Under the pieces are notes generated by a model that saw nothing but the letters and a program-made list of their open reading frames with translations, searched no databases and was not told where the DNA came from. 64,000 bases of DNA from a virus (taxonomy: Duplodnaviria; Caudoviricetes): the IMG/VR virus record IMGVR_UViG_2883475777_000001; one strand, 5' to 3'. Position numbers and translations under genes: made by a program. Every line of letters starts with the position of its first letter. The stretch's first letter is position 1. This document shows, piece after piece, positions 9,641 to 32,772 of the stretch.

Positions 9641-11641
9641 CTACTGTGCGAAGACGAGCTTTCCTTGTTTAGCCTGGTCCACCAGGTCCTTCGTGTTGAC
9701 GACGATCTGCTCGGCGGCCCGCGCCGTCCGCTCGGCCAGGTTGTCCGCGCCGAGTCCGCGGGCAGCCAGCGCGTTGAACGTGCCTTTGACTTCGACCTTG
9801 CGCTGCTCTTCGCCGAGCGCCCCCGCGCTGAAGGACAGACTGTCTTGGAGTTCCTTCATGCGTTCTGGCTCGCTCGACTCGGCTTCAGCCCGTTTCTTCG
9901 CCGCTTCGGCGATGGCCTCCTGCCACTCGCGGCGAGCGTCCGCCAGTTCGCCCTCCGTTTCCCCAAGGTCTTCGGCGAACTGCCGTTGCCGGCGGGCGTG
10001 TTCCTCTCGCTGCATGTCGGTGAGCGTGCTCTCGACGCCGGCCCGGTCGCGTTCGATTTGTGCGCGTCGCTCTCGTCGCTCACGGTCCCGCCGGCCAACC
10101 GCCTCGAGCATCTTGTTGTCGGCGGCTTCATTCGCCTGGCTGGTTTCGCGATTTATGCGATTGACCTCGGCGTTGACATCCACGTCCGAATCGAACAGCG
10201 ACTTGAGCCGGACCCAGGCCTTCTTGATGAAGCCGACGGTCGAATGCCAGGTCTTGGTGAGCAGGTTGGTAAAGACCGACCAGGCGTCGGCGAGGAACCC
10301 GACCGTCTCGGTCCAGGCAACTTCGATGGCGGCCCAACCATCGTTAAAGATCTTCGCCGCGCCGAACACGGCATTCGTGGCGATAGAGAGGAAGAACTCC
10401 TTGAACTTGATCCACAGTCCGTTGAGGAAGTGGATGCCCCGCTTCCATTCCATCTTCAGCGTCAACCAGAGAATCTTCGCCGCCAGGGCGAGGTCGCCTG
10501 CCGCCAGCGCATCGCCGATTCCCTGCCACGCGGCGAGGGCATCGCTCTTGAGTACCTGAAACCGCTCGCCCAACCAGGCGAGCGCCTTGCCGCCAATTCC
10601 AGTCGCGTACAGCAGGTAGCCGGCCAGCGCCACGACAGCGAGAATGACCAAGCCGATCGGCGTGAGCAGCAGCGCGATGATTTTTCCCAGAATGGCAATC
10701 GCCGCTCCGACCGCCCCGATGACCGCGACCAGCCCGCCGATCACCGCGCCGATCACCGCGCCGGCGCTGGAGATCAGCGTGCCAAGAATAATGAGCGCAA
10801 CGCCGGCGGCAACTACAGCGGCGGCGATCTTGAAGACCGTAACGACGAGCGTCTTGTTCTCTTTGATCCATTTGATGACCGACGTGATGAGGGGTGCGAT
10901 TCGCTTCTGCATTTCCGTCAGCACTGGGGCGAGCGCTGCGCCGATCTGCACAACGATGGCCATTAGTTGGCGTTTCAAGCGGTTCAATGCGTCGGTCAAC
11001 TCGGCTGCGGAGGTGGCGTCCTCGTCCGTCATCGTGATGCCGAGCCGGCGGGCCTCTTTTTGTAGCGCTTCGATCGACGCCCGACCGCCTTCCAGCATGG
11101 GCAGTAGCTCACGGCCACTGCGGCCAAACACGTTCAGGGCGACGCCAGCGCGGAGCGTGGGGTCTTCGATCTTGGAAATCGCCTCGGCCAGCAGCTTGAA
11201 GCGTTCTTCGGGGCTGGCCTGTTTGAACTGCTCAGCGGAGACGCCGAGCATGTCGAGAAGATCAGTGGACGTTTTCAGACCGCGCTCGACCATCACGGAA
11301 AAGCGGGCCATTGCTGCCAGCGAGCGGTCGAGTTGGTCGATGGACGCGCCGCCCTGTTCGGCAGCGAATCCTAGTTCGCTGAGCGCCTCAGCTGAGAAAC
11401 CGGTCCGTGCCCGCATCTTGTCGAGCTGGTCACCCGTGGAAGCGAAGAGTTTCGCCGCTCCCAATAGAGGCGCGAGCATCGCGGCTCCGGCGGCCGCGAC
11501 TTTGAGCCCCATCGCGCGGACGCCCGCACCGAAGGCCTGCAATCGCTTCGATGCGCGGGCCAGGCCGCGAACGAGACGGCTGTCCTTCGTGTAGAGTTCG
11601 ACGTAGGCCGCGCCAGCGCGGATTGCTTGAGCCGAAGGCAT
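9641..11641 (-). CDS. Tail tape measure protein
   Basis: AGAAYVEL N-terminus, Ala/Leu-rich helical repeats, hydrophobic central stretch, follows the tail chaperones. Confidence 0.9.
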   Translation of the reverse strand: MPSAQAIRAGAAYVELYTKDSRLVRGLARASKRLQAFGAGVRAMGLKVAAAGAAMLAPLLGAAKLFASTGDQLDKMRARTGFSAEALSELGFAAEQGGASIDQLDRSLAAMARFSVMVERGLKTSTDLLDMLGVSAEQFKQASPEERFKLLAEAISKIEDPTLRAGVALNVFGRSGRELLPMLEGGRASIEALQKEARRLGITMTDEDATSAAELTDALNRLKRQLMAIVVQIGAALAPVLTEMQKRIAPLITSVIKWIKENKTLVVTVFKIAAAVVAAGVALIILGTLISSAGAVIGAVIGGLVAVIGAVGAAIAILGKIIALLLTPIGLVILAVVALAGYLLYATGIGGKALAWLGERFQVLKSDALAAWQGIGDALAAGDLALAAKILWLTLKMEWKRGIHFLNGLWIKFKEFFLSIATNAVFGAAKIFNDGWAAIEVAWTETVGFLADAWSVFTNLLTKTWHSTVGFIKKAWVRLKSLFDSDVDVNAEVNRINRETSQANEAADNKMLEAVGRRDRERRERRAQIERDRAGVESTLTDMQREEHARRQRQFAEDLGETEGELADARREWQEAIAEAAKKRAEAESSEPERMKELQDSLSFSAGALGEEQRKVEVKGTFNALAARGLGADNLAERTARAAEQIVVNTKDLVDQAKQGKLVFAQ

Positions 11642-16941: not shown

Positions 16942-16961
16942 CGGAGCGCAAGAGGCGGGAT
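16931..16961. other. Left att junction (core TTGAA plus inner arm CAAGAGGCGGGAT at 16949-16961)
   Basis: Arm is the exact reverse complement of 27361-27373. Confidence 0.85.
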
Positions 16962-16985
16962 AAGAGCGAACAATGCAGAACGCGT

Positions 16986-18824
16986 CTATTCGGCGGCGAT
17001 CCAACCCTTTTGATGGCCGAGGTTGTTAATCTTGCCGCTTAAGACGGCCTGCGCAAGGAGGCGAGAAGCGTACGGCCGTCGCACGCCGAGATGGTCGGCT
17101 ACGTTGCCAAGGAACACCACGTCGTCCTGTTCGCGGACGAAGCGCGCGGCGTCCCGCCAGCGACCGGGACTGGGAACGTCATCATCGGTAATTGGAATCG
17201 TGCCATCGATGCCCAGGTCGTCGCGAAGTTCGATCGCGCCGTCCCACAGCGTGATCCGGTGCTTGCCGTCGCCACGACGCTCGCGACGAAGAATGATCCG
17301 CTTCACGGTCTGGCGAATGGCGAACGCGAGCTTCTCACGGTCCGCTTCCGACAGGCACTCCAGCAGTTCGTCCAACCGTGCGATGACCTCCAGCGCTTCC
17401 GGCGTCGGTGCTTGCTCGCCCTGCACCTGGTGCAGCTTCTCTTTGAGCTCCGATTCCTGTTTGCGCCACGTCGCCAGCAGCTTCGAGATACCGGGAACGT
17501 CCAACGGATCGGCCAGGGCCAGGTTCTCCGTGCCCCGTTCGATCTTGGCCCACAAGTCGGCAAGCTGCGATTCGTACCGACCGACATCGGTCTGAACCTT
17601 TCTCGTGCGACGCGTGATCTCCTTGCGGATCGCTCGCTTTGTGCGTTCGTCCGACATGAACGCCTGTAACTTGGACAAGACGCCCTGCTCGATGGTCTCC
17701 GCGCGGAAGCTTGGCCGATCCGATTCCTCCGGGTGTTCCTCGAATTCGCGGGGAGGCAGCGAATAGTACCGTCGCACGACCGCGCGTTGCGAATGGCTCA
17801 TGGTGCAGCCTTGCAGTCTGCGGCCGTCGCCGAGAAAGACAACTCCAGTGAGCAGGTACTTGCCTGGCGTTGGAGCCTTGCACGGCTCGCTGTTTCGCTG
17901 GAGCTGCTTCTGCGCGCGGTCGAATAACGCGGGTGTTACGAGCGGCTCGTGGGCGTCTTCGCATGTCACGCCACCATCATCGTAGAGACTGCGAAACTTG
18001 CCGCGCCGCCGCTTCTGGCCGGCAACGATCCTTCCCACGTAGACCGGATTCGTCACCGTGCGTCGAACACTCGTGGCGTTCCACCGGTTGCCATGCATCG
18101 TTCGGTAGCCTTGCCGATTGAGCTGGCGGGCCACGGACCCGCACGACGAGCCTTTTGCAACGGCCTCGAACATCATTCGCACCGCTTCGACAGCTCGCAC
18201 GTCGGTTGAGATGACCAGTCTCGACGACCATTCAATCGGACGCCGGAACTTCTCCGTTGGCGATACGCGGCGGACGACGACACCCGTTTCGTCGAGAATC
18301 TCCCGGTCGTAGCCGAACGGTGGCCCGCCCTGCTTCTGGCCACGACTGATTGCCAGTCGCTTGCCACTAATAACCCGGTCGGCCAGTTTCACCGATTCCT
18401 CGCGTGCGCCGTACTGATCGACGATGGCGGTGATCACGCCGCCCAGGTTGTTGAAGTCGAGTTCGCCGCGCTGGCAGGTGATGATCTTCACGCCGGCGTC
18501 CCGTAGCTGCTTCCAATGGATCATCGCGTCGAACACGTCCTCGCGCGACATCCGGCTTTGTTCAGAAAGCAGAACAGCGCGAAACGCGCCGCCTTTTGCG
18601 TCACCGAGCAACCGCTGGAAGTCCTTGCGGTTGTTCGATTCCGTGCCGGTCAGTCCGTGGTCTTCATACCAGCGGACGATTTTGTAGCCGGCGCGATCGG
18701 CCAAGGCCTCAATGTCCTTTCGTTGCCGCGCGGGGCTATCCTGCTGTTGGTCGGTGCTCATGCGGATGTAGCCAACCGCCGGAACGCGCGACCCGTTTCT
18801 CCGTGTAGAATTGCGTTTAGCCAT
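16986..18824 (-). CDS. Large serine recombinase (satellite integrase)
   Basis: GYIRMSTDQQQDS catalytic motif, SEQSRMSR, recombinase domain, coiled coil; start MAKRN at 18824. Confidence 0.92.
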   Translation of the reverse strand: MAKRNSTRRNGSRVPAVGYIRMSTDQQQDSPARQRKDIEALADRAGYKIVRWYEDHGLTGTESNNRKDFQRLLGDAKGGAFRAVLLSEQSRMSREDVFDAMIHWKQLRDAGVKIITCQRGELDFNNLGGVITAIVDQYGAREESVKLADRVISGKRLAISRGQKQGGPPFGYDREILDETGVVVRRVSPTEKFRRPIEWSSRLVISTDVRAVEAVRMMFEAVAKGSSCGSVARQLNRQGYRTMHGNRWNATSVRRTVTNPVYVGRIVAGQKRRRGKFRSLYDDGGVTCEDAHEPLVTPALFDRAQKQLQRNSEPCKAPTPGKYLLTGVVFLGDGRRLQGCTMSHSQRAVVRRYYSLPPREFEEHPEESDRPSFRAETIEQGVLSKLQAFMSDERTKRAIRKEITRRTRKVQTDVGRYESQLADLWAKIERGTENLALADPLDVPGISKLLATWRKQESELKEKLHQVQGEQAPTPEALEVIARLDELLECLSEADREKLAFAIRQTVKRIILRRERRGDGKHRITLWDGAIELRDDLGIDGTIPITDDDVPSPGRWRDAARFVREQDDVVFLGNVADHLGVRRPYASRLLAQAVLSGKINNLGHQKGWIAAE

Positions 18825-18837
18825 GATTGCCCTTTCC

Positions 18838-18905
18838 AAACCAAAGGGTGTGAATGGTAAGAGCCGCCGGCGTGTTCGCTGCACGCCGACGGCTCGCTTT
18901 GGTTT
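18838..18905 (-). promoter_or_regulatory. Nested hairpin in the integrase leader
   Basis: 14-bp stem with 1 mismatch (18861-18895) inside AAACCAAAG/CTTTGGTTT arms, adjacent to the RBS. Confidence 0.5.
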
Positions 18906-18929
18906 CAGACGTTGGGTGGTTTCGACTGA

Positions 18930-19133
18930 TCATCGGCCTTCCAAGATTCCGACGACCGCCGCCAACCTCTGGTTGACTTCAGCCATCGTTCCAACATGCG
19001 TCCATGCGATGTCGACCTCGCCGCCGGGTGCCGGTTGGTCCTGCAACAATTCGCGGATGCGTTGCAACAGGTCCTGCGCAACCAGGTGGGACGTCTCGTA
19101 GGCCGGTTCGGCTTGCAATCGTTGTCGTGTCAT
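18930..19133 (-). CDS. Small hypothetical protein, paralog of 35517-35744
   Basis: AYE..H.VAQDL.QRI.ELL.D.PAPG...W..VG...EVN.RL shared; ATGA coupling. Confidence 0.75.
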   Translation of the reverse strand: MTRQRLQAEPAYETSHLVAQDLLQRIRELLQDQPAPGGEVDIAWTHVGTMAEVNQRLAAVVGILEGR

Positions 19134-19405
19134 TTGGACGCCCTCCGTTTCTTCGCCGCCAAGGTGAAACGACCGGGGCCGGTCTTCTTGAAACGGGCGT
19201 CCTTTCCCTTGCCGATGTCTCGAATGATCGAAGCGTACAAGGTGGCCTGCGGCGTCTTGCCGCCGGGCGAGGTCCACAGGTTTTTCCTTTCCATCGCCTC
19301 GATCATCTCTTTGCAGCTCATGGGCTTTCGGGCTTGCCGCAGCACCTTGATGGCTGCATCGATCTGGCTCAGCTTCGGTTGGGTTGCGGTCTTCTTTCCT
19401 GCCAT
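19130..19405 (-). CDS. Winged-helix (HARE-HTH-like) protein, paralog of 36120-36521
   Basis: DAAIKVL...PMSCKEMIEAM...LWTSPGGKTPQATLYASIIRDI. Confidence 0.8.
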   Translation of the reverse strand: MAGKKTATQPKLSQIDAAIKVLRQARKPMSCKEMIEAMERKNLWTSPGGKTPQATLYASIIRDIGKGKDARFKKTGPGRFTLAAKKRRASK

Positions 19406-19496
19406 CGTTTCGTCTCCCAATCGGATTGGTGTTGTTGCGTCGCGAACGCCGCGACGCGTGACAGGACAGTTACCTCGCGTTTTCGGCGTCATCAAG

Positions 19497-19811
19497 CTAG
19501 GCGTTGGCATCCTTGGCCAAGTCCGCCGAATCGTCGCCAGACGGGCCAACTGTGGGCGACGGGTTGGCCATTTGGGCGTCCAGCCAAGGGTATTCGCCAG
19601 CCCGAATCGACGCTTCGATCTGTTTCAGAAATTGCCATTCCCACAGCGGGACCATTACGACGTCCTGCTTGCTGTAGCGCTGGATCACAATCGGCTCGTC
19701 GGTGTTGGCCACGGATTGATACGCCCATCCCAGGCTGTCTCGCAGGTGGGTGATCCGCATGACGTGCTCGGGCGTTGGTTCGGGCGTTGGTTCGGGCATT
19801 GGCTCGGACAT
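19497..19811 (-). CDS. Phd/YefM antitoxin-like protein
   Basis: MRITHLRDSL...V..TDEPIVIQRYSKQDVVMVPLWEW; start uncertain. Confidence 0.55.
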   Translation of the reverse strand: MSEPMPEPTPEPTPEHVMRITHLRDSLGWAYQSVANTDEPIVIQRYSKQDVVMVPLWEWQFLKQIEASIRAGEYPWLDAQMANPSPTVGPSGDDSADLAKDANA

Positions 19812-19839
19812 GTACAAGAAAGAAACTGTAGGTAAGTTT

Positions 19840-19888
19840 GCGACTGTTCCCGCGGGCGTCTCCTGAAGACGGTCGCGAGGTAGGACCC
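19840..19888 (-). other. Putative packaging (cos-like) signal, satellite copy
   Basis: 34/49 gapless identity to 39234-39282; starts with GGGTCCT. Confidence 0.6.
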
Positions 19889-19913
19889 GTTCGCCCAACG
19901 GAGGCGATTCAAG

Positions 19914-20147
19914 GTTGCCACCAAGACTGCCAACATGCCCCCGTCTCTTTTTGGTGGCAATCTTGGCAGTGTTGGCAGCCTTCCCCAAAAACACCGGGAA
20001 CCACGCGTTCCCTCTACGGCAATTTGGTGGCCATCTTCCTTTTTGGTGGCAGTGTTGGCAGTCTTGATTCGGTGAAAGATGTCCAAGGCTGCCAAGACTG
20101 CCAACTTATTGAGACGGGGGTTGGTGGCAGTCTTGGTGGCCATCTTG
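19914..20147. repeat. Iteron-like cluster (TTGGTGGCA/TTGGCAG units, both orientations); putative satellite origin
   Basis: About a dozen short units immediately downstream of the helicase gene. Confidence 0.65.
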
Positions 20148-21716
20148 ATCCGGCAGGCTCCAATACCACTTGCCACCATCCTTCTTGGACCGACCTTCGA
20201 TCTCCTTGAACGCACGCCGGAGCGTTCGCTCCGAGAAGCCGTTCTCTCTCGCATCCGCAATCACCTGTTTCGATGGCTGGCGACCTTCAGCGAGCTCGTT
20301 GCGCAACCAGGCGACGACCTCACGTCGCTCCGCGCCTTGAGTGCTCTTGTCGCTGGTCGATTTCAATTCCGCCGCGAAGGCCTCGTCGGCGTGCATGCGA
20401 ACCGGTTCGAGTTCCCATGCCACGCGGCTGTCGACGATGCGGTACGCCAGGCCGTCGGGATCGCGTGCGAGGTTTAGCTTGCCGGGCAGGAACAATCGTC
20501 GCTCGGGATTCTCCTGGTCCTTGGCCACCGCCCACACGGCGCGTGAAGCGGCCGCGAATGCCAGCGAGCCCATCGCACGGTACACCGCTTTCGCGCCACC
20601 CGACTTGCTGAGATGGGTCACAGCGACAATCGCCACCCGATGGCGGCCAGCCAAATCGGCAAGCGGCGCGAGTAGACCTCGGACATCCGTGTTCTTGTGG
20701 GAATCAACGCTGCCGGTGTAGGCCGAAATCGGATCGATCACGACCAGGCGCGCGTCGGGCATCTCTTGCATGACTTCCTCAAGGCGTGGGAGGTCGGCCT
20801 CAAGCGAGAAGTGCCGGCGTCTGCCACCTTCGGCCACGCCTTCGACGGCCACTATGTTCCCGTCGTCCGCGCCGGCCTTGTCCAATCGCGGCGCGATGGT
20901 GTCGGCCAGATCGTCCTCGGCGTTGAAGAGCACGACGCCCGCCGGCGACTGCTTGAGCAAGGGCAGGTCGGGCCACGGCTCGCCGCGCGAAACGCGAGCG
21001 GCGATGTCCAGCGTGACGAATGACTTTCCCAGACCTGGATCGCCGGCCAACAGAGTCAGCTTGCCCAGCGGAATCCGCCCAGGCCACAACCAGTCAAGTA
21101 GTTCACGTTCCACGTCTTTCAACCTCCTCTTGATCGCGTGAGGCGGTGCCGGTGGTCGCCAGAGCGGCGCTGGTGCCGGTGTTGGCTTTGCCGGCTTCGG
21201 TGCCTCAAGCATGCCGCGCAGTCCCTCCGTCAGAAAATCCTCGGGCCGTGGCGGTGGTACGATCCGCTTCGGATTGATCTCCGCTTTCGCCCACGCATCG
21301 ACCGCCTTCTGCCACGGCGGCACAATCTCGTCCGCGACTTGGCCGTTGGTCGCACCCGCTTCGCACAGTTCCCACCAGAGTTGCTTGGCCATCTCCATTG
21401 CCTGGCAACGTCCGCGCGTGCGACATGCGGCAACCTCGTGGCCCGTGTGGTAGACCACCTGGTCGCTCTCCATGTCGGGATCGCCGTACATCTCGGCGCT
21501 CGGCACGAGCAGTTCGGCTTCCCGTCTTGCCTGCCGCCGGTCGTTCCAGGCCAGGGCGATGGCTGCCTCGTCGGGCGCATCCCAGGTGGCGACCACCATA
21601 GCGCCCTCCATGAAGGCTTGGCGATAGACGCGTTCGTTGGTTTGGCGCTCGGGCGTGACAGGCCAATGCGGACCGTCGTCGTAGAAGCGAACCGTCTCAG
21701 GCGGCAGCGTCACCAT
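20106..21716 (-). CDS. AAA_25/RepA-like helicase
   Basis: WLWPGRIPLGKLTLLAGDPGLGKS, FNAEDD, LVVIDP, THLSK, GSLAF. Confidence 0.88.
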   Translation of the reverse strand: MVTLPPETVRFYDDGPHWPVTPERQTNERVYRQAFMEGAMVVATWDAPDEAAIALAWNDRRQARREAELLVPSAEMYGDPDMESDQVVYHTGHEVAACRTRGRCQAMEMAKQLWWELCEAGATNGQVADEIVPPWQKAVDAWAKAEINPKRIVPPPRPEDFLTEGLRGMLEAPKPAKPTPAPAPLWRPPAPPHAIKRRLKDVERELLDWLWPGRIPLGKLTLLAGDPGLGKSFVTLDIAARVSRGEPWPDLPLLKQSPAGVVLFNAEDDLADTIAPRLDKAGADDGNIVAVEGVAEGGRRRHFSLEADLPRLEEVMQEMPDARLVVIDPISAYTGSVDSHKNTDVRGLLAPLADLAGRHRVAIVAVTHLSKSGGAKAVYRAMGSLAFAAASRAVWAVAKDQENPERRLFLPGKLNLARDPDGLAYRIVDSRVAWELEPVRMHADEAFAAELKSTSDKSTQGAERREVVAWLRNELAEGRQPSKQVIADARENGFSERTLRRAFKEIEGRSKKDGGKWYWSLPDQDGHQDCHQPPSQ

Positions 21717-21864
21717 CGTTGGCCTCCGCTTGTTTCCGTCGCTTCTCGTAGATGTCGATCAATACGGCGGCCCAGGCGTCGGCGACTTCCTCAGGAAGCT
21801 TCTCCTTCGTATCCGGATCCTGCCGGCGCGCATCCTCAGCGCACGGTGTTGACTTGGTTCTCAT
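21697..21864 (-). CDS. Small hypothetical protein (55 aa)
   Basis: GAGAGGG RBS; EEVADAWAAVLIDIYEKRR helix; overlaps the helicase start. Confidence 0.5.
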   Translation of the reverse strand: MRTKSTPCAEDARRQDPDTKEKLPEEVADAWAAVLIDIYEKRRKQAEANDGDAAA

Positions 21865-21989
21865 GACCCTCTCCTCGAAACCGCGAATTCTGCTGTCGCA
21901 GAGACAAATCGGCGTCGCGGCCTGCAAGTCCTGGTGCAAGCCACGATTCGCCACGCGGGTGCGGGCCAGTCCATTGAGTGCGGCGCGGA

Positions 21990-23831
21990 CTATTCGCCGT
22001 CGGCCTTGTACGCGGCGCGATAATCGCCCAGCGCGGAACCGAAGTCGTGATAGACTCGCCACGTCGCGGCGAGCTTGTTGGGATCGGCGTCGAAGCCGAA
22101 AAACTCAACCGTCGGGCTCTGCTTGCCCTGCAGGAATGCCACGACGATTGCCGCGTCCTGCCGGCCGGCGAACAGATACCATGCCTTATCGCTGGTGCCG
22201 GTGAAGCGAGCTGAGTTCGACAGCCGCGGTTCGACCTCGAGCGACACGACGTTCTTGAGGGCATTGCCCGTCGGCTCGTCGTTGTTCGCCCGCTGGATAA
22301 AGTCGGACTGCAGCAGCTCCTTGGCGGTCTGCTGCAACTCGGGCGGCACAAGTAACGTGCGAGGTCGGATGTCGAGGTCGCGATCCTCGTCGTCCCGCTG
22401 CGCCATCATGCGAGCGATGCCGGTCGCCAGCGCGATCGCGTCGAGCGTCGATCCGGCACCGGTGTCAAAGTTGCCGTTGCCGGCGCTGAAGAACGAGCCG
22501 GCCCCACCGAGCAGCGTCGTGTAGGCCAGATCGCTGACCGCGCGCATGGCCGCTCGACCGAGCGACATCGCCGTGTCCTCGAACAGACCGAGGTCGTCGT
22601 TGATGATGTCGCGCCGGTCAATCGACAGCATCTTGCCAAAGGTATCGACCGAATACTGGTAGGTCGCCTCGTCGATGCTGCCGTGCTTCAGTTCGCCGCC
22701 CGGCGCAACCTGCGTCAGGTCACCGGTATCACTCGGTCGGATGCCGGTGTGATCCTTGAAGTCGGCAGCCGACTTGATCGCCGCGAACGCACGCCAGGTG
22801 GCCGGCGACTCGGTGTAAGCATCGAGAAGCACCTTGTTCGCCGCATTCCCAAGCGCGACGGGAAGAGAGTAAGTCGACAGCGCCGCGCGGATCAGGGCCT
22901 CGCGTCCCGATGGCGCGTCGCGCTGTTCGACCATCAGTGCCGCCCGGCATAGATCAACGAGGCTCGTGGCCCGCAGCTCGCGGGCTTGTTGGGCGGTTTG
23001 CGGGCCAAGGTGCTTCTCGACCAGATTCTCGTGGCCCATGTGGACCAGCACGGCCGCTTCGATCACGTCGCGCGTGGGCGCGACCGTCGTCGTTTGGATG
23101 TACGGACCGCGCGGGCGCGACGCTCGCAGCACGGCCAGTTCCGTCTGCTGTCCGGACCAGCCTTCTCGGATGGCCTGCGCCTCGATGTCGCCGTGTTCGC
23201 CATTGCAGGCACGACGAATCGCCGTGATCCGTTCGGTTTCGGCAGCCGCTTCGGCACGGATGTCCTCGGCGGTTTTTTCTGTGGTTGTCATGAGAGCCTC
23301 TTCTCCTTCCTGCGAAGCGGCGATCGCGACCGACGTTCCGGCATCGGCACCAATCGCCACAATGCTGACTTCCTTGAGCGCGGACGACCGCACCAGCGTG
23401 AACCCGCTACCGGTCGCCCTGATCGTCCGCCCGTTTACTTCAACAATGTCGCCGGCGCGTACTCGCTTCGATTCGCCCGGAGCAACACCGACCGACGCCT
23501 GAAACTGAAACCCGCTGCGAGCCAGCTCGATGATCTGCTTCGCGGCCTCATTGGTGGGCGCGATCGTGCCGGCGACTAGCAACTTGCCGTTGGCGACCGA
23601 CGCCTGCCCGAAACCCACAACACCTCGCAGCGTAGAGTCGTGGTCGGCCAGGATGCTGATCTGAGACGCCGAGACGTCGACGCCGGCCAGGTCGAGAACT
23701 AGCGGTCCCCATCCAGGCACGACCATCTCACCGCCTGTGTAGGCGACGATGGTGACGGCCGGCGTTTTGCCGGCGGCCTGAATATCCACGTCGCTTGTCG
23801 CGAGCAGCAGTTCTTCAGTCGCTGTGGACAT
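21990..23831 (-). CDS. Second protease-major capsid fusion (satellite-encoded)
   Basis: IVAYTGG, FQFQASVG, QVAPGGELKHG, LSIDRRDIINDDL, YHDFG: divergent homolog of 14472-16505. Confidence 0.88.
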   Translation of the reverse strand: MSTATEELLLATSDVDIQAAGKTPAVTIVAYTGGEMVVPGWGPLVLDLAGVDVSASQISILADHDSTLRGVVGFGQASVANGKLLVAGTIAPTNEAAKQIIELARSGFQFQASVGVAPGESKRVRAGDIVEVNGRTIRATGSGFTLVRSSALKEVSIVAIGADAGTSVAIAASQEGEEALMTTTEKTAEDIRAEAAAETERITAIRRACNGEHGDIEAQAIREGWSGQQTELAVLRASRPRGPYIQTTTVAPTRDVIEAAVLVHMGHENLVEKHLGPQTAQQARELRATSLVDLCRAALMVEQRDAPSGREALIRAALSTYSLPVALGNAANKVLLDAYTESPATWRAFAAIKSAADFKDHTGIRPSDTGDLTQVAPGGELKHGSIDEATYQYSVDTFGKMLSIDRRDIINDDLGLFEDTAMSLGRAAMRAVSDLAYTTLLGGAGSFFSAGNGNFDTGAGSTLDAIALATGIARMMAQRDDEDRDLDIRPRTLLVPPELQQTAKELLQSDFIQRANNDEPTGNALKNVVSLEVEPRLSNSARFTGTSDKAWYLFAGRQDAAIVVAFLQGKQSPTVEFFGFDADPNKLAATWRVYHDFGSALGDYRAAYKADGE

Positions 23832-24411
23832 TGGTCGCCTCCTGCGGTTCGAGTTTGGTTCCCTGCGGGAAGAACCGGATGTAGGCGTACTCGTTCGGAT
23901 CGGTGGACGGTTCGATCACGGTGACCAAGCCGAGCACGTCGAAGCTCGTCGAGAACCCCATCTTGTAACGAGCGGCTGCAACGCGACGCGCCTTCACGCA
24001 CTGGCCGAACCGCAGGTTGTTGACCCAGCAGTAGTGCGTCCAGGACGACCATCGGTCCTGGTCGTTCTCATAGATCCACTCGGCGGCCGCGTCGATGTCC
24101 TCCTTGCTCCACTCGAGCCAATCGTTGCCCGTCCAGGTCATGCCTGGCCGCGCTCCCTTCGGCTGGACGATTCCTTTCTCGGCGAGCTGCCAGAGGTAGA
24201 TGCCGTCGACGTACAACCCTCGGAGACGCAGTTCGCGGAATGCGCCTTCCGTCGACTTGGGATAGATCAGCGCCGTGCTGGAGTTGCGACTGCGCATCTT
24301 CTCGTCGTCGATGTTGGGTAGCAATTCCATCAACTGATCGAAGTCCTCGCGGAGCCAATAGTGCTTCTTGTCGGCCCGGGCTTCGCGGTCCTGCTGTTCA
24401 GTTTGCCTCAT
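23815..24411 (-). CDS. Hypothetical protein (198 aa)
   Basis: Coupled to the sigma gene (ATGA) and overlapping the capsid start; AGAAGGA upstream. Confidence 0.7.
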   Translation of the reverse strand: MRQTEQQDREARADKKHYWLREDFDQLMELLPNIDDEKMRSRNSSTALIYPKSTEGAFRELRLRGLYVDGIYLWQLAEKGIVQPKGARPGMTWTGNDWLEWSKEDIDAAAEWIYENDQDRWSSWTHYCWVNNLRFGQCVKARRVAAARYKMGFSTSFDVLGLVTVIEPSTDPNEYAYIRFFPQGTKLEPQEATNVHSD

Positions 24412-24917
24412 CCTTGTTCTCCTTCTTTGATGATTGAGAGTTCGCGTTGGACGGTTCGCTTGGGAATTCCCGTCTCCCTGGCGATTTCGTCGACCGTGCA
24501 GCCGGCCATCCACAGCGTGCAGACTTCCCGCCTTCGTTCCGGCAGGCTGCCGAGATAGTCGCGAATCAACCCGTCGACGGCCGGGTCGCGACAACGCGAA
24601 GTGCGCGGCGTCGCATAACCCTCGATGTTTCCCGGCTGGTTGTCAGAGTCGATTCGTGAGACAGCCTTCGGCTCGCGTTTGCCTTCCGAGTAGAAGTCAC
24701 GGAGGAGGTTGTACTGCCGGCTCGCCATGCGGTTCTTGGCAAGACCGACGTCCTTCGTCTCACACAAGACCTGCCAGCCGGCCAGAAACAGCTCCTGAAT
24801 CGCATCCTCCGTGCGATGGTCGTCCCAGCCATGCGGTCGCTTGGCCGCGATGAGTTTCTTGACCAACGCCTCCGCAAACGGGTGGAGATCATCGGGGGTG
24901 TCGAAGTAATCGGTCAT
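24408..24917 (-). CDS. ECF-like sigma factor (satellite)
   Basis: EDAIQELFLAGW (region 2-like) and LPERRREVCTLWMAGCTVDEIARETGIPKRTVQREL (region 4.2 HTH). Confidence 0.75.
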   Translation of the reverse strand: MTDYFDTPDDLHPFAEALVKKLIAAKRPHGWDDHRTEDAIQELFLAGWQVLCETKDVGLAKNRMASRQYNLLRDFYSEGKREPKAVSRIDSDNQPGNIEGYATPRTSRCRDPAVDGLIRDYLGSLPERRREVCTLWMAGCTVDEIARETGIPKRTVQRELSIIKEGEQG

Positions 24918-25251
24918 CCAATCTCCTTTGACCGGCAGGCTTCCTGCGTCTACTCAACTAATCCACGCGCCTCCGCGCAAACGCGCCATCGTAGACTCGA
25001 AATCTTCTTGAGACCTCGGCCTCCATCGGATCGTCAGTTGTTTGCGTATTAGCTGCGCGGAAATATCACTGATTTTTCTCATGTCCGACGATTGAACTCG
25101 CGTTGCAGAATGATAAACTGGGCAATTTAGTGGAGGCGAGAGCAGTTCGCTGCCGATTCGTGGAGTCGCTGAAACTTTTTGGACTCCGAAGTCGTCTCTC
25201 CTTGATAGAGAGGTTTCCATTTTCCCTAGCCGGCCAACCACGAGGTGTCAA

Positions 25252-27237
25252 ATGCAAAGACGATTCACGGTTGTTATCACAACCTTACTGTTGACTCTCT
25301 CTTCTACTGTTTCTTATGCCCGCACCTGGACCGAGCGGTCATCCGGACGAACAGTCAATGCAGATCTCGTCTCCTTTGCTGGCGACGTCGTAAAGATCAG
25401 ACGCCAGAGCGATGGCAGAGTCTTCGCTGTCCCCGTCGAACGGTTGAGCGACGTTGACCGAACCTTTGTGGAATCTGCTTCTCAAACGCGCCCTGAGGCA
25501 ACGCCCCGAAAAGGCAACGTTAGGTTTGTGGCGTTTAATGCGCAGGCCCAGGATGAGTACAGTGCTGAGCAACTCAATGCGTCGAAACGCATCGTCTGTG
25601 TCTGGAAAAAAGGCACGGCTCAAGCAGCCATGAGGACGATTGAAGCGGTCGGTCTGAAGGTCACGTACCTTGGCTCTGCAATCCCGTTCGGCGTTTGCAC
25701 CGGACAACTCACCGAGGACGGACTCAAGCGGCTGAGGAGCGACCCGTCGATCCAAAGTGTCGAACCTGACATCGAGTTGGTCGTTGACGACGCGCAGCCC
25801 GAAGTGCGGCAGATTACGGACGAAGTCTTGGCAGCATACGAACACGCTGGCCGTATGGTGTGCGTCTGGAAGAAGGGGAAGAAGAAGGAAAGTCTCGAGA
25901 TGCTTGCGCAAATGGAGAAAGAAGGAAAGCTGCGCGTGATTCACAAACTCGAGACCACTCCAATCGCCTTCTGTGACTGGAAGCCGCCACTGCAGCAAGC
26001 AACGCTGGTGCAACTGCAAAAATCGCCAATGCTGGATTACGTTGAACCAGATTTGACGCTGGTGAAGGACAACCCAACCAAAGGTCGAGAGATTGTATTC
26101 CCGAACGGGACACCCAAGACGGTCGTGTCTAAAGGCGTTGTACTGACCACGCCAGATGATCCAGAGATTGCCAAGCTCTGGGGAATGGATTCCATCAAGG
26201 CGAAGAAGGCGTGGACCTGTGCCAACCAAACAGATGTTGTTGTGGCAGTGATCGATTCGGGCGTCGATTATAATCATCCGGACCTGAAGGCCAACGTGTG
26301 GGTCAATACGGGTGAGATCCCTAACAACGGAGTTGATGACGACAGTAACGGCCACAAGGATGACTACTACGGCCTGAACTTCACTCAACTTCCACCTACA
26401 ACGGATACGCTCGATAGATACGGACACGGTAGCCACGTCGCCGGAACTATCGGTGCCGTTGGCAACAACAAGCTCGGAGTCGCAGGCGTCAATTGGCGTG
26501 TGCAGGTCATGGGACTCAAAGTTTTTGATGACGCTGGAACTGCACCAGTTGGAAGCGCTCTAGCTTCTGCCATCGATTATGCTGTCGCGAGGAAAGTTCG
26601 CGTCATCAACTTGAGTCTTCGCTGGGGAAGTGAGCGGGCTTTCTTGAAACGTGTTATTGATGGAGCGGAAGACAAGGGCGTTCTGATTGTATGCTCAGCT
26701 GGCAATCTAAATCGTGGTGATGATCCACGCACGATTGATAATGACGTCGTGCCCCAGTTCCCCGCGTCCTTTCCGAATGACAACGTCATCGCGGTTGCGA
26801 ACATCACGGAGAGAGAACAGCTTAATGCGAGTAGTCATTTTGGATTGCGGAGCGTCGATTTGGGTGCTCCCGGGACAGACATTTACAGCACTGTGCCAAC
26901 TTCTGTAAAGGCATCGGGTTATGACTCGTACACTGGGACATCCATGGCAAGTCCGCATGTCGCAGGTGCGGCGGCGCTGATTTGGGGACATAAGAGGTAT
27001 AGCAGTGGCGATTTCAAGGCGATTCGAAAGCTACTTCTAGACAATGCTCGCTCAATTCCCGCGTTGTCGGGAAAGTGCGTAACTGGCGGCACTCTTGACA
27101 TTGGCTTCTTGTGTAAGCAGAGCCCGCCACCTATCGGAAAGAAACCGCCAATCGTGATTTGCCCCCCACCTCGTTGTTACATCCCGTGTCCCCCGCGCCG
27201 CCACGTCTTTTATCGCTTCCGTTGTGGTAGTCGGTAG
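25252..27237 (+). CDS. Secreted S8 subtilisin-like protease with SHD1-like N-terminal domain
   Basis: Signal peptide; RTWTERSSGRTVNA (SHD1-like); two I9-like propeptide repeats; triad VIDSG, HGSHVAG, GTSMASPHVAG. Confidence 0.92.
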   Translation: MQRRFTVVITTLLLTLSSTVSYARTWTERSSGRTVNADLVSFAGDVVKIRRQSDGRVFAVPVERLSDVDRTFVESASQTRPEATPRKGNVRFVAFNAQAQDEYSAEQLNASKRIVCVWKKGTAQAAMRTIEAVGLKVTYLGSAIPFGVCTGQLTEDGLKRLRSDPSIQSVEPDIELVVDDAQPEVRQITDEVLAAYEHAGRMVCVWKKGKKKESLEMLAQMEKEGKLRVIHKLETTPIAFCDWKPPLQQATLVQLQKSPMLDYVEPDLTLVKDNPTKGREIVFPNGTPKTVVSKGVVLTTPDDPEIAKLWGMDSIKAKKAWTCANQTDVVVAVIDSGVDYNHPDLKANVWVNTGEIPNNGVDDDSNGHKDDYYGLNFTQLPPTTDTLDRYGHGSHVAGTIGAVGNNKLGVAGVNWRVQVMGLKVFDDAGTAPVGSALASAIDYAVARKVRVINLSLRWGSERAFLKRVIDGAEDKGVLIVCSAGNLNRGDDPRTIDNDVVPQFPASFPNDNVIAVANITEREQLNASSHFGLRSVDLGAPGTDIYSTVPTSVKASGYDSYTGTSMASPHVAGAAALIWGHKRYSSGDFKAIRKLLLDNARSIPALSGKCVTGGTLDIGFLCKQSPPPIGKKPPIVICPPPRCYIPCPPRRHVFYRFRCGSR

Positions 27238-27272
27238 CGGCTTGCAGAGTGACGACTAGTAGTGCTAGTTAC

Positions 27273-27308
27273 GCCCAGCAGGAGCATTCCTGCTGGGCAT
27301 TTCTTTTT
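27273..27308 (+). terminator. Rho-independent terminator after the subtilase
   Basis: GCCCAGCAGGA-GCAT-TCCTGCTGGGC (11-bp stem) followed by ATTTCTTTTT. Confidence 0.8.
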
Positions 27309-27360
27309 GACTCAATGACGTTGATACAGAAATGCCGAATCGAACAGGTTGTTGACGAAA

Positions 27361-27394
27361 ATCCCGCCTCTTGAACGCCCTTCTTGAAAGGCAT
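27361..27394. other. Right att junction (inner arm ATCCCGCCTCTTG at 27361-27373, core TTGAA at 27384-27388)
   Basis: Inverted copy of the left arm; portal homology resumes at 27389. Confidence 0.85.
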
Positions 27395-28570: not shown

Positions 28571-28729
28571 TGAGGTCTCCAATCGCAAGCGAGAACAACG
28601 CCTGCCTATTTGAAGACCTACCCGGTCACTCTCGTGAATGACGAAAGACAAGGAGAAGAAGGCAGAATCGTGCTACATGTAGCGAGGTCGGAGCCTCAGG
28701 GCCATGAACGTAGCGGTCGACGAAGGAAC

Positions 28730-29560
28730 TTAGCGCAAGTCGGGTGTGCGCCTGGAGAGGACTGCAAGGACCTCGTCATGGCCCCATCTGGAACCGACCT
28801 CCTTGCGTCGATGTTGAGCCCACCCGCTTGCCGACATGTGATGCTTGGCATCAAGGATGGTGGCGTCCGCGCCACGGTTCAATAGAAACGACACCATGTT
28901 CGGCTTCGCTTCCCATGCCGCCCAGTGCAATGCGGTCGCTTTCCCATCCGTCACGTTCACATCCAGACCGCTATCGAGCAAGTATTCCACGAGGGGTACA
29001 CGATCGCAGACTGCGGCACACCTCAGCACATCAAAGACTTGCTCATCGGAAAAGGATGCCGACTCAAGGTCCGCCCGCACTCGATCGAGTTGTCCAGCTC
29101 CGGCCGCGATTCGTGTCGATAGGATTTTCGCACCCTCTCTTACGAGCAGGTCGACAACTTCGACCATGCCGAAATGAACGGCGAAATCCAGCGGCGTGCC
29201 ATCGGGGATGCCGGGATACGAGGCAACGGCTTCCATGTTCGCGCCGGCGTCGATCAAAACTTCCGCGACGCCCGCTTCTCCCAAACTCGCTGCGCCGTGA
29301 AGAGGCGTTTCGCCTGCGCCGGGAAGTCCGTCCACCGGCGCGCCCGCGTCGATCAGAATCTGTGCCAACTCCGCCTGCCGGCCATGATCCCAGAGTTGAT
29401 TGAAGGGGCCATCGCTCAAGAAGTGAAGCGGCTCAGTCTGGCAGCTGTTCAGAATGCTGCCCCAGCGGATCGGCGTGGAAGCTAGTTTTGGGTTTTCATT
29501 CAGAAGCTGTCGGGCGCGTTCGACATCGCCAGCGACAATCGCCTTCTTAAGTTGACTCAT
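28730..29560 (-). CDS. Ankyrin-repeat protein
   Basis: GETPLHGAASLGEAGVAEVLIDAGA, GTPLDFAVHFG, ATALHWAAWEA. Confidence 0.9.
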   Translation of the reverse strand: MSQLKKAIVAGDVERARQLLNENPKLASTPIRWGSILNSCQTEPLHFLSDGPFNQLWDHGRQAELAQILIDAGAPVDGLPGAGETPLHGAASLGEAGVAEVLIDAGANMEAVASYPGIPDGTPLDFAVHFGMVEVVDLLVREGAKILSTRIAAGAGQLDRVRADLESASFSDEQVFDVLRCAAVCDRVPLVEYLLDSGLDVNVTDGKATALHWAAWEAKPNMVSFLLNRGADATILDAKHHMSASGWAQHRRKEVGSRWGHDEVLAVLSRRTPDLR

Positions 29561-29561
29561 T

Positions 29562-29978
29562 TCATTGGGCCTTCAATCCTGCCACAACCTGGCAGCAGTC
29601 TGATTTCTTTTGAGTCTGGCATTCCTCGAGCGCGTTCTTCAACACTTTGCGGACGTGCCGAAGATCCTTCAGCCGCTGCTCGATGTCCGCCAGTCGCTCC
29701 TCAATCAGGCTCTGCACGTTGCCGCACGTCGGAATGCCGCCTTCGTCGTCGGAGAGCAACGCCTTCACGTCCTCGAGCGTAAACCCGATCGCTTGTGCCG
29801 CGCGGATGAACTTCAGCTTGTTGAGCGACTCACCGCTGTACAACCGGTAGTTTCCCTGGCTGCGATTCTCGGGTTCAACGAGACCGATTCGCTCATAGTA
29901 GCGAACAGTCGTTGTCGGAATGTCAGCCGCTTTGGCCAACTGGCTGATGGTGTATTCGTCGGGCATGGCAATGCTCAA
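29562..29978 (-). CDS. MerR-family divalent-metal regulator
   Basis: YTISQLAKAADIPTTTVRYYERIGL; Cys at PTC, EEC and SDCC match the Hg/Zn/Cd/Pb-sensing subgroup layout. Confidence 0.92.
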   Translation of the reverse strand: MSIAMPDEYTISQLAKAADIPTTTVRYYERIGLVEPENRSQGNYRLYSGESLNKLKFIRAAQAIGFTLEDVKALLSDDEGGIPTCGNVQSLIEERLADIEQRLKDLRHVRKVLKNALEECQTQKKSDCCQVVAGLKAQ

Positions 29979-30021
29979 ATCGCCCTTGGAGAACTGATTT
30001 TCAGTTTTTTGGCAAATCCGC

Positions 30022-30053
30022 TTGACCTTGCACTTAGGTGCAACCTCGATAAT
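30022..30053 (+). promoter_or_regulatory. MerR-type promoter/operator
   Basis: TTGACC, 20-bp spacer, GATAAT; dyad TTGCAC-TTAG-GTGCAA (30028-30043) inside the spacer. Confidence 0.85.
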
Positions 30054-30094
30054 AGACGCAGATGACCGGATTCACAACATAGGGCTGAGAAGCC

Positions 30095-31285
30095 ATGAAC
30101 CAGAACGCGGCAACCGCAACCAGACAGACGTGCCCGACTTGTGGCCAAAAAGCACGACGTGTTTCGCTTCACACGATTCGCAGCCTGTTGAAGGAACCCG
30201 CTGCATCAGGATTCCAAAACGGCGAATCGTGTTGCCAGACCGATGGAACGGGATGTCACGCAATCACCGAAGACACCGGCTGGCGTTTCTGTGACTCGCC
30301 GGCATGCGACGTTGTGTACTTCGCAGAGCAGAGTGACGATACGTTTGTCAAATCACAATTGAAAGTTGACGTGGGCGTCAAGGAGACAGCTGGCGACCGC
30401 CCTCTCTGTTATTGTTTTGACCACTCGGTGACCAGCATCAAGCGTGAGCTGGAGGCAACGGGAGAATCGACGGCGGTCGAGGATATCCGCTCCCGGATGA
30501 AAGGAGAGGGGTGCCATTGTGAAGTGACCAACCCCAGCGGATCCTGTTGCCTCGGAAGCGTGGCCAAGGGAATCGAAATCGCGAAGGGTGAACTGGTTAC
30601 GACGGAGTCGCACATTGATTCCAAACCTCCTTCGGGCCGGGGAGAGAAGATCGCCAAGGTCGGGACCATCGTCTCTGCGATCATGGCATCGAGTTGCTGC
30701 TGGCTCCCGTTGGTCCTATTGGCCGTAGGCGTATCCGGTGCCGGCATCGCGGCCGCGCTCGAAACCTATCGGCCCCTGTTCATGCTCATCACATTCGGGT
30801 TTCTGGGAGCCGCCTTCTACTTCACTTACCGGCCTCGGCCAGCAAGCGATGCGAACCAGGACGCGTCGTGCTGCGACTCGACGATGGTAGGCGAATCAGA
30901 CTGCTGTGCGCCCGAAACGACGTCGCGCTGGAGTATGGCCGCGATGAACAAAGTCATGCTGTGGGTCGTCACTGGGCTGGCGATCGCGTTCCTGGCCTTC
31001 CCAAGCTATGTCGGTCTGCTCTTCGGTGCAGGACACAACGTGGTCGTAACCGATGATATGAACCGCGCGGTTCTCACAATTGAGGGCATGACTTGTGAAG
31101 GATGCGCGACGACAGTTGCTGAAGCGATCAAACGTGTGGACGGTGTGATCGCGGTGGAAGTGAACTACGAAACGAAGCAAGCGACCATCGGGGCGGAAGA
31201 CTGCTGTCCCGTGCCGATTAAGGAAATCCAGTCTGCTCTCGCCAAGGCCGGTTACGCCGGCGAGCCAATCGACCCAACGGACTAA
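30095..31285 (+). CDS. Fusion: Cys-rich CopZ-N-like metallochaperone + MerT-like transporter + HMA (MerP-like)
   Basis: CPTC, FCDSPACDVVYF, LCYCF, NPSGSCC; SSCCWLPLVL...TYRPLF transmembrane segment; GMTCEGC. Confidence 0.85.
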   Translation: MNQNAATATRQTCPTCGQKARRVSLHTIRSLLKEPAASGFQNGESCCQTDGTGCHAITEDTGWRFCDSPACDVVYFAEQSDDTFVKSQLKVDVGVKETAGDRPLCYCFDHSVTSIKRELEATGESTAVEDIRSRMKGEGCHCEVTNPSGSCCLGSVAKGIEIAKGELVTTESHIDSKPPSGRGEKIAKVGTIVSAIMASSCCWLPLVLLAVGVSGAGIAAALETYRPLFMLITFGFLGAAFYFTYRPRPASDANQDASCCDSTMVGESDCCAPETTSRWSMAAMNKVMLWVVTGLAIAFLAFPSYVGLLFGAGHNVVVTDDMNRAVLTIEGMTCEGCATTVAEAIKRVDGVIAVEVNYETKQATIGAEDCCPVPIKEIQSALAKAGYAGEPIDPTD

Positions 31286-31312
31286 CCAATTCATCCGAAA
31301 GTGATTCACAAC

Positions 31313-32575
31313 ATGAGCCGTTTTGCTTGCATAGCCCTGCTTTGCCTGCCCGTCGCAATCGTTGGATGCGGCCGCACGAGTACGGAGAATCCAAACGGTA
31401 CGTCGTCAACCGCGTCGTCCGAATCGACTGTCCACATTCACATCAGCGGCTTCAAGAAGAGCAAAAGCGGCGCGACGTGAATGTTGTGACCGAACACGGT
31501 CAAAGAGGCCCTGGAAGGGTCTGACGCAGTCACAATGGTTGAGATGCATCTCGATCGAGACGTATTCGATGTCACGTTTGATTCATCGAAGGCGCAAGCG
31601 TCCGATCTCGTCGCCATCATCGCCGAGGCCGGCTACTCGGCGAGAATTATCACGGGCGATACGTCCGAACCTACCGTTGCCGATGTCGACTATCCCGCGC
31701 TTTTGCCTTCCGTATTCGACCGGGCGAGATCCGCCGGCAAACCGGTCGTGTTGTACTTTGGGGCGTCATGGTGCGTTCCTTGCCGCCGCATGTCCCAAGA
31801 AACGTTTGCAGATCCGACGGTAAAAAGCCTGCTCGACCGCTGCATCTTTGAGAAGATCGACGCCGACGAGCGAGCCGACTTGTCAAAACAGGCGGGTGCG
31901 AGGGCTCTCCCCGACGTGCGATTCGTTTCCGCCGACGGGAAGGAAATGAAGAGGATCACCAGCTTTCTCGGCCCGAACCTGTTCGCGGACGAGCTGCGCC
32001 AATTGCTAGGTGATGAGCCTGTCGACAACACAGTCGAAGAAGGCAAGAGCGTCGAGTTGCATGATCTCTCGCCCGAAGCAGACCAGCTGCGCGAGGCCTT
32101 CGTGAAGGCCAGCGGTAAAGTGAGAGTCGTAATGCTTGTCTCGCCTGGCTGACCGATGTGCGTCGAAGGGGCCCGTGCGGTCCATAGGCAGGCTACCAGC
32201 CAGATTGAAAGTCCCGACTTGGTGATTTTCGTTGTGTGGTTGCCGCGATATCCGGGGGACAACCGCGAGAAGGCCGTCACCGCCACCAGGAACGTATCTG
32301 ACTCGCGGGCTCACCACTTCTGGGACGCCGAAGCCATGCTGTCAAAGCGTTACGGACGGATCTTGGGTCTGCCGGAAGGTAAACAATTCGCGTGGGACAC
32401 ATACATGGTGTTCGACGCGGATGCGACTTGGATCGACACACCGCCGACGCCCGCCAACTGGATGCATCAAATGGGCGGGGCACTTGGCCGCAGCCATCCG
32501 CGTTGGCTTGATCCTGATAGATTCAAGGGCTCGCTAATTGAATTGCTAAAAGAGCCAGACCGCAATCAACCTTGA
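31313..32575 (+). CDS. Predicted triple-selenocysteine lipoprotein: HMA-like (UxxU) + thioredoxin (CxxC) + redoxin-like (UxxC), 420 aa
   Basis: One frame from ATG 31313 with lipobox IVGC. In-frame TGA at 31478, 31487 and 32150 give GAT-U-ML-U-PNTVKEAL and VSPG-U-PMC. WCVPC in the middle domain. Joins track ORFs 31535-32152 and 32156-32575. Confidence 0.8.
31500..31524 (+). promoter_or_regulatory. Putative bacterial SECIS hairpin 1
   Basis: AGGCCCU-GGA-AGGGUCU stem; loop G lies 32 nt and 23 nt after the first two UGAs. Confidence 0.6.
32169..32183 (+). promoter_or_regulatory. Putative bacterial SECIS hairpin 2
   Basis: GGGCC-CGUGC-GGUCC; loop G lies 22 nt after the third UGA. Confidence 0.55.
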
Positions 32576-32580
32576 TTCAT

Positions 32581-32772
32581 TCAGACGCGATTTGGAGGAG
32601 CCTGGACCGGCGACTCGTAAGTCACGATCTTGCGGCTGCAATGCCGGCACTCTTTGCGGCGGCGAATACGGCCGTCACGCAGCGGTTCCGTATGCGTGGT
32701 GTAGAAATGCCGGCAGCCGCACCGTGGGCATTCGATGCCGCGATTGGGTTGTTGTGAGCCGGCCTGATTCAT
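32581..32772 (-). CDS. Small Zn-ribbon protein (CxxC...CxxC)
   Basis: ECPRCGC...RRRKECRHC; ATGA overlap with the terL stop. Confidence 0.75.
   Translation of the reverse strand: MNQAGSQQPNRGIECPRCGCRHFYTTHTEPLRDGRIRRRKECRHCSRKIVTYESPVQAPPNRV

Follow-up and report, generated by a model that had tools for sequence, protein, structure and literature searches.

The helper prophage and the portal-embedded satellite analysed here carry the same cis-element of about 90 nt, designated E1, which is common to prophages, satellites and minimal rep-integrase elements of the Pirellulaceae and of which approximately 110 non-redundant copies were found. Judged from its sequence, E1 has about an even chance of being a transcription-control element of the ECF-sigma promoter type. 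Satellites must read or imitate the signals of their helpers, and the type of signal that is shared tells how they parasitise. We know of no phage-satellite system that has been studied in the phylum Planctomycetota, and E1, which marks a family of Planctomycetota prophages, capsid-encoding satellites and minimal rep-integrase elements, furnishes a search handle for such elements. In what follows the window denotes the whole 64-kb stretch of DNA that was analysed.

E1 in the helper prophage and its satellite

The first-pass annotation of this DNA had described a gapless alignment of minus-strand positions 19888–19840 with positions 39282–39234, and this was reproduced at 34/49 identical nucleotides. 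When the 49-mer was slid over both strands of the window no other position gave 30/49 or more, and none of 200 shuffled queries reached 34/49. The core reported as exact, CGCGGGAACAG, is indeed present in both copies (19854–19844 and 39248–39238). On the 3′ side of the 49-mer lies an exact bipartite sequence, GGGAACAG-N14-ACAGTTT (19851–19823 and 39245–39217), followed by a T-rich stretch and GTCCGA, and extension of the alignment in register gives 54/91. The match is confirmed as part of a conserved signal of about 90 bases, not an isolated 49-mer.

The entire 6.5-Mb genome was scanned with a position-weight matrix built from the copies of 62 relatives. Only the two E1 copies were returned, the helper copy at 62.9 bits and the satellite copy at 34.9 bits, and the reversed genome gave no hits; the exact GGGAACAG-N14-ACAGTTT likewise occurs twice in the genome. 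A chance match was rejected on the strength of the shuffles and of this genome-wide uniqueness. BLASTN by itself would have passed over the pair (E=0.56), and its reality therefore rests on conservation in the approximately 110 other elements. A search of the window for weaker copies with flexible spacing found none, and a pattern of altered spacing, CNNNGTTT, which served as a null, gave matches at control level only.

The helper copy (39201–39282, minus strand) comprises block A (GGTTCCTTCC, 39282–39273), block B (GGGAACAG, 39245–39238), block C (CACAGTTTGTTT, 39224–39213) and block D (GTCCGAA, 39207–39201), and the ATG of the next open reading frame is at 39179. In the satellite copy (19803–19888, minus strand) the corresponding blocks are GGGTCCTACC (19888–19879), GGGAACAG (19851–19844), TACAGTTTCTTT (19830–19819) and GTCCGAG (19809–19803), the last overlapping the ATG at 19811–19809. 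Both sites are non-coding and each follows a replication gene and iterons, as had been stated: a Prim-Pol replication gene (39593–41875, minus strand) in the helper and an AAA_25 gene (20106–21716, minus strand), unrelated to Prim-Pol, in the satellite.

The helper genes are arranged on the minus strand in the order serine integrase (59022–60611), ECF-type sigma factor, AAA_24 protein, helicase, Prim-Pol, iterons and E1. The sigma gene (45498–46208) lies on the same strand as E1 and 6.3 kb upstream, and its product passes the NCBI curated ECF model TIGR02937 (53.5 bits; cut-off 42.9). The iterons, composed of GAAGGAAGAAAGAAG and CTTCCTTCAC units, occupy 39300–39620, between the Prim-Pol gene and E1. 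Downstream of E1 (37252–39179, minus strand) are a 50-amino-acid open reading frame, a ParB-N/N6_N4 methylase gene (37614–39011) and a deoxyribosyltransferase-like gene (37252–37701). These are followed by five genes on the opposite strand (35517–37186), among them HARE-HTH and DUF4314 genes, by a small terminase candidate of 68 amino acids resembling the Nu1 N-terminal domain (35032–35238, minus strand; overlapping the start of terL), and by terL (32769–35039), a gpW-like open reading frame and the portal gene. The large terminase is of the GpA type (GpA_nuclease) and the portal protein belongs to Phage_portal_2, which bears out their earlier description as lambda-type.

The satellite (16945–27383, minus strand; 10.44 kb) is inserted within the helper portal gene, with a TTCAA crossover core and inverted arms of 13 nt (CAAGAGGCGGGAT). 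A comparison with the uninterrupted portal genes of loci L087 and L092 placed the junctions at 16944 and 27384, with an overlap of 8 nt. The satellite genes run in the order ECF-like sigma factor, 259-amino-acid protein, protease-capsid fusion, AAA_25 replication protein, iterons, E1, Phd-like protein, HARE-HTH protein and large serine recombinase. The sigma protein (24408–24917, minus strand) falls below the TIGR02937 cut-off (32 bits) with a full-length match and belongs to phrog_1740, as does the helper sigma. The protease-capsid fusion is the satellite's own, being 36% identical to that of the helper; the iterons (TTGGTGGCARTCTT units, 19915–20178) are unrelated to those of the helper, and a terminator-like hairpin with a T-run (19996–20012, minus strand) stands between the replication gene and E1. 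The genes downstream of E1 (16986–19811, minus strand) are a Phd-like open reading frame, the HARE-HTH gene (19130–19549), a small open reading frame and the recombinase gene (16986–18884), whose product contains Resolvase and Recombinase domains and is not a tyrosine integrase of the PICI clade. No Nu1-like small terminase was found to be encoded by the satellites.

The E1 family

The four blocks of E1 are GGTWCYTCC (A), GGGAACAG (B), CAnAGTTTGTTT (C) and GTCCGAA (D), and the full consensus reads GGTWCYTCC, about 24 nt, (GA)GGCACGY-GGGAACAG-YCGCC, nine variable nucleotides, GCA(C/G)AGTTTGTTT, 5 nt and GTCCGAA. When a degenerate pattern, first tried on the window, was applied to 200 sampled genomes of the family, about 45 proved to have clear members, one to five each; further copies were drawn from IMG/VR contigs anchored on the methylase and from metagenome contigs, and the collapsing of copies that were at least 85% identical left 110. 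Each phage, satellite or minimal element has a single copy, and every copy is co-oriented with the next gene.

In helper-like phages E1 lies between the Prim-Pol and methylase genes. It also occurs in capsid-bearing satellites and follows the homologs of the satellite replication gene, which are present in 33 of the 200 genomes. Genome G188 harbours a second portal-embedded satellite with E1, which is related to that of the window and adjoins the same portal fragment, and the helper of which carries a variant E1. Minimal elements show arrangements such as Prim-Pol/D5, E1, DUF2924 and serine integrase; among these, L097 (G027:C41; 7800–12900) and L098 (G124:C2; 8600–12900) combine Prim-Pol/D5 or a DUF5906 helicase and E1 with DUF2924 and a serine integrase or with unknown genes, are set among host genes, and are candidate minimalist satellites.

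Ranked by similarity to the E1 copy of its own helper, the window satellite came 16th of 82, and three other satellite–helper pairs gave ranks of 14, 42 and 52. Satellite copies are thus no closer to their own helper than to other phages, which indicates that the shared part consists of the blocks conserved throughout the family. The description of the satellite site as a near-copy of this helper's site was accordingly overstated, while the underlying idea of a cis-signal shared by satellite and helper at equivalent positions is supported.

RNAalifold returned no consensus structure for either strand of E1 (z-scores of about 0). A structured RNA or a terminator was rejected for this reason, and the signal acts at the level of DNA. 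Cultured relatives whose genome ends are known were sought among 50,697 phage records, where the best match to terL fell short of 30% identity and BLASTN with E1 gave no hit.

Two further observations concern the limits of the element. Upstream of the methylase in phages devoid of the sigma gene (L135, L147, L153 and L182), block A (ATAGGTACTTCC), a GC-rich hairpin and GTTTGTTTTT replace the GGGAACAG core; the retention of block A where the core is lost suggests that it may have a function of its own. In contig L104 (IMGVR_UViG_3300030233_000275) similarity to the helper (terL, 98%) is confined to window positions 39068 to 27451. The matching segment takes in the 57 nt ahead of the methylase but not E1, stops about 70 nt short of the portal att site and is flanked by unrelated DNA, with a partial E1-like sequence 2.4 kb further on.

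Promoter, packaging-site, origin and operator readings

A sigma-dependent promoter had been named in the first-pass annotation as one of the outcomes that would speak against its own proposal, and it is this outcome that has come to the fore, at roughly balanced probability. Promoters of the SigE/SigH type, defined by RNA-seq and in vitro transcription, have the consensus GGAAC-N18-19-GTT, and those listed include the form GGAACA-N16-AGTT (PMC10012870). E1 reads GGAACA-N17-AGTT, with 19 nt between GGAAC and GTT in both window copies. GGAAC is present in 103 and GTT in 107 of the 110 non-redundant copies, 19 nt apart and at the positions of highest information, figures that are partly circular in that the copies were picked with a matrix built on those two blocks. 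There are six matches to GGAAC-N18-19-GTT in the window, of which just two, the E1 copies, fall in its non-coding DNA (4.2 kb in all). These two point at start codons 10 or 39 nt away; among relatives the distance from GTT to a start codon preceded by a Shine-Dalgarno sequence has a median of 39 nt (IQR 37–54), 42 of 67 falling within 34–42 nt. The first genes after E1 differ, and include those for the ParB-methylase, a small open reading frame, Bro-N, an AAA_33 kinase, a 250-amino-acid HExxH protein, and DUF2924 with an integrase.

The distribution of the sigma gene points in the same direction. In at least 11 prophages a homolog is encoded 6.4–10.5 kb upstream of E1 and in the same orientation, and sigma and E1 are both present in about 38 helper-like phages in which both regions are covered. 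These co-occurrences were determined with a local HMM; the Pfam Sigma70_r2 search of viral records was too insensitive and missed a sigma detected by the protein search. The complete 44-kb provirus G201, the helicase, Prim-Pol and methylase of which are 62–68% identical (Prim-Pol 68%, methylase 67%), has neither sigma nor the E1 core and retains block A, the hairpin and the T-run as a degenerate E1. Sigma and core are both present in G205 (terL 46%) and both absent from G204 (terL 53%; 83% complete), and a prophage with stop codons in its sigma gene has a decayed core. The presence of sigma separates the phages with an E1 core better than does terL identity, both associations being confounded by relatedness. 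No sigma-70-type promoter was found between the satellite replication gene and E1 and, given the terminator-like hairpin there, the recombinase operon needs a promoter exactly at the position of E1.

As a promoter, E1 would have GGGAACA as its −35 and AGTT as its −10 element (GGAAC-N19-GTT), block A as an upstream element and block D as a conserved initial transcribed region, and would start the transcription unit that follows the replication module. This unit would comprise the small open reading frame, the ParB-methylase and possibly late genes in the helper, and the Phd-like, HARE-HTH and serine recombinase genes in the satellite. The most likely reader is the phage-encoded ECF-type sigma factor, although the diverged sigma of the satellite or a host ECF sigma might also serve. 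The same promoter on both elements means that one factor would switch on both at once, and we infer that excision of the satellite, which restores the helper portal gene, could be timed to helper development. A promoter at E1 would explain when a satellite lodged in a portal gene excises, and E1 and its sigma together offer a phage-borne candidate for an ECF sigma/promoter pair that can be put to the test. More tentatively, temperate phages of the Pirellulaceae and several kinds of satellites may share one such pair as a common switch, the helper sigma firing the satellite E1, the serine recombinase excising the satellite and the portal gene being rejoined just in time, while satellites with a sigma of their own may fire the helper E1.

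Several observations stand against the promoter. Each element has a single copy, the stretches ahead of the sigma genes (46.2–46.8 kb and 24.9–25.3 kb) contain none, and neither autoregulation nor a regulon of the E1 type was detected in the window or the host genome. The sigma proteins are only 24–74% identical, and the region-4.2 helix differs between phages with identical E1, although distant ECF sigmas share GGAAC specificity. The core occurs without a detectable sigma in G207 (90% complete) and in two incomplete records, and G060 has an intact sigma and a degraded −35 box. Overall, terminators are no more frequent upstream of E1 (10/77) than in the downstream control (16/77). The five antisense genes between the helper E1 operon and the small terminase gene imply that E1 may not drive the structural genes, and the promoter reading leaves the packaging signal of the satellites unaccounted for if E1 is not cos. 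A host regulon promoter was rejected, the genome hits equalling the reversed-genome null at 14–18 bits.

In the original proposal the satellite mimics the packaging site of its helper: E1 would be a cohesive-end site, resembling cosQ-cosN, that is cut by the conserved GpA-type large terminase and carried by satellites and minimal rep-integrase elements for packaging by the helper. This ranks second behind the promoter and is possible rather than probable. Satellites of cos-type helpers, such as P4, the cos-SaPIs and the HE-PICIs, must carry a compatible site (PMC10111431); E1 is single-copy in each phage and satellite and is the only non-coding sequence found to be common to helper phages and the terminase-less satellites. 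All phages with E1 have a long GpA-type terL (46–98% identity) and two with another terL subtype lack the core, an association confounded by relatedness; against it, G204 has the same terL type and no E1. The polarity of E1, with block A, block B and the genes running towards the terminase, agrees with that of lambda cosQ-cosN-Nu1, and block A matches the lambda cosQ region at 11/13. The cited cosQ sequence, GGGTCCT, was verified on NC_001416 and is present in the satellite copy, but the helper reads GGTTCCT and the family GGT(A/T)C(T/C)T, and the similarity of the 62 E1 copies to lambda cos is at chance (mean score 15.9; shuffles 15.0). Of 48 metagenome contigs with a true E1, eight begin 25–127 nt upstream of block C and one ends within 150 nt downstream, two independent contigs starting at the same block A base and one at CGGGAACAG. 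The starts are, however, scattered over nine positions beside the iterons, which break assemblies by themselves, and in the IMG/VR contigs E1 is internal in all but one. Against the proposal, E1 lies 3.7 kb from the Nu1-like small terminase gene, with the five antisense genes between, and in a comparison with L087 E1 and its flanks are co-linear (81% identity) while the N-terminal half of the small terminase and about 360 nt upstream are swapped. The small terminase type correlates with no feature of E1 in about 20 phages, and the GGCCAC-type repeats adjoin the small terminase gene, not E1. No dyad symmetry was seen in E1 by eye, the satellite E1 is not matched to the copy of its own helper, and the GGAAC-N19-GTT match with its tight start-codon spacing would be a coincidence if E1 were cos. 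The computed tests lend no support to mimicry of the packaging site but do not refute it.

The position of E1 would also suit the host-facing part of a replication origin, an unwinding or priming region beside initiator-specific iterons, for it adjoins iterons downstream of the replication gene whether the carrier is a phage, a satellite or a minimal element, and with three unrelated types of initiator (Prim-Pol/D5, DUF5906 and AAA_25), and blocks C and D are AT-rich in a genome of 56–60% G+C. We consider this very improbable: G201 has a Prim-Pol that is 68% identical yet no E1 core, in L093 a distance of 4.3 kb separates E1 from the replication gene and E1 keeps its place beside the downstream genes, exact conservation of every base is rare among unwinding elements, and strict co-orientation and start-codon spacing would go unexplained. 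It is also unlikely that E1 is neither promoter nor cos but an operator, bound by a different conserved DNA-binding protein that helper or host supplies. Four separate conserved blocks over about 90 nt, the persistence of block A in phages without the core and a HARE-HTH protein common to satellite and helper (66% identity) would fit an operator, but no protein is common to all elements bearing E1, and neither repeats nor a dyad of the kind usual in operators were noticed.

Compared with promoters of the SigE/SigH/SigR class (PMC10012870), E1 has the same −35 pentamer and −10 trimer, a spacing within the published range, which includes GGAACA...AGTT, a compatible distance to start codons, and an ECF-type sigma in the same element. 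It differs in being borne by temperate phages and satellites of Planctomycetota, in one copy, with none before the sigma gene; block A, the T-rich tail of block C and block D lie outside the known consensus, and its promoter function is a predicted one. In PBSX (Xpf) and in Gram-positive siphophages (RinA/ArpU), sigma-like late activators act with a single late promoter, and their genes stand directly before the late operon. These systems resemble E1 in joining a phage-encoded protein of the sigma family to one promoter that heads the packaging and morphogenesis region, whereas in the helper the replication operon, 6 kb upstream, begins with the sigma gene, and the satellites share E1.

Among satellites, the late promoters of P2 and P4 depend on Ogr and Delta, zinc-finger activators that bind a dyad at −55, and the two share a cos site, that of P4 being a near-identical 55-bp copy. 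The likeness lies in satellite and helper carrying the same cis-signal, by which the factor of one acts on the other, and the proposed switch would be a sigma-based counterpart of Ogr/Delta cross-activation; here, however, the candidate factor is a sigma rather than a zinc-finger protein and only the family-wide blocks are common. In the HE-PICIs of Enterobacterales, which use tyrosine integrases, a helper-like satellite sequence was read as cos, a 258-bp stretch with 90% identity at the lambda cos position (Tommasini, Mageeney & Williams 2023, PMC10111431). Unlike these, the window satellite encodes a serine recombinase as well as an ECF-like sigma and a capsid protein of its own, and the shared element is about 90 nt long, 55–70% identical and far from the small terminase gene. 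Lambda cos itself (NC_001416) is comparable in its GpA-type terminase, Nu1-like small protein, single site and polarity, and in the GGGTCCT of the satellite copy; E1 differs in not being next to the small terminase gene, in lacking repeats specific to the small terminase type beside it and in having only chance similarity.

Adjoining loci and cargo

Two other regions were considered as cos sites and rejected. The region upstream of the helper small terminase gene showed no similarity to the satellite (score 29; shuffle mean 27.7), and the gap between terL and the gpW-like frame varies from only 37–91 nt in some relatives to a hotspot for cargo in others. In the window this gap holds a 4-kb cargo block (28574–32608) with genes at 28730–29560, 29562–29978, 30095–31285, 31535–32152 and 32156–32575; relatives have 240–500 nt or other cargo of 2.3–4.2 kb there, which marks it as an insertion hotspot.

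The small terminase candidate (35032–35238) and about 280 nt upstream form a variable unit. The protein has a Nu1-N-terminal-like HTH, at least two N-terminal types exist among relatives, and each type is swapped together with its upstream DNA, which contains either GGCCAC-type repeats or a TTTAGG-N4-CCTAAA palindrome. A second conserved non-coding sequence, Element 2 (35393–35483, minus strand), lies upstream of this gene and consists of CACACATGAGCCA ... ACATCAAGCG ... CAGCTTTTTT. It was also found in L085, L086, L089, L090, L093 and L101, with an oppositely oriented small gene next to every copy. Several relatives carry five to seven copies of it apiece and the satellites none, so that it is not cos either; it resembles a plus-strand cassette promoter (TTGATGT-N12-TGGCTCATGTG).

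Satellite and helper have further sequences in common. The HARE-HTH genes of the satellite (19130–19549, minus strand) and the helper (36072–36521, plus strand) share a 202-nt DNA match (76% identity, E=6e-32) and are inverted with respect to the genes around them, and a second short match joins 19023–19112 to 35553–35642.

Homologs of the sigma factor with 31–41% identity were noted in smaller elements without E1 (L193, L194 in G181, and L196 in G060), which have a distant terL (28%) or lie beside a serine integrase.

The cargo of related satellites differs, being an SHD1-subtilase in the window (25252–27237), GmrSD in G188 (L096:233–2245) and TIR/SEFIR and PIN proteins in G086 (L088:18278–19801 and 10092–11066). 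A family of proteins of about 250 amino acids with an invariant HELAHIL (HExxH) motif is encoded by the first gene after E1 in L096 (3098–3853), L098 (10765–11523), L100 (12370–13122) and L073 (1547–2278); it has no match in Pfam or NCBIfam and may represent an ImmA-like protease.
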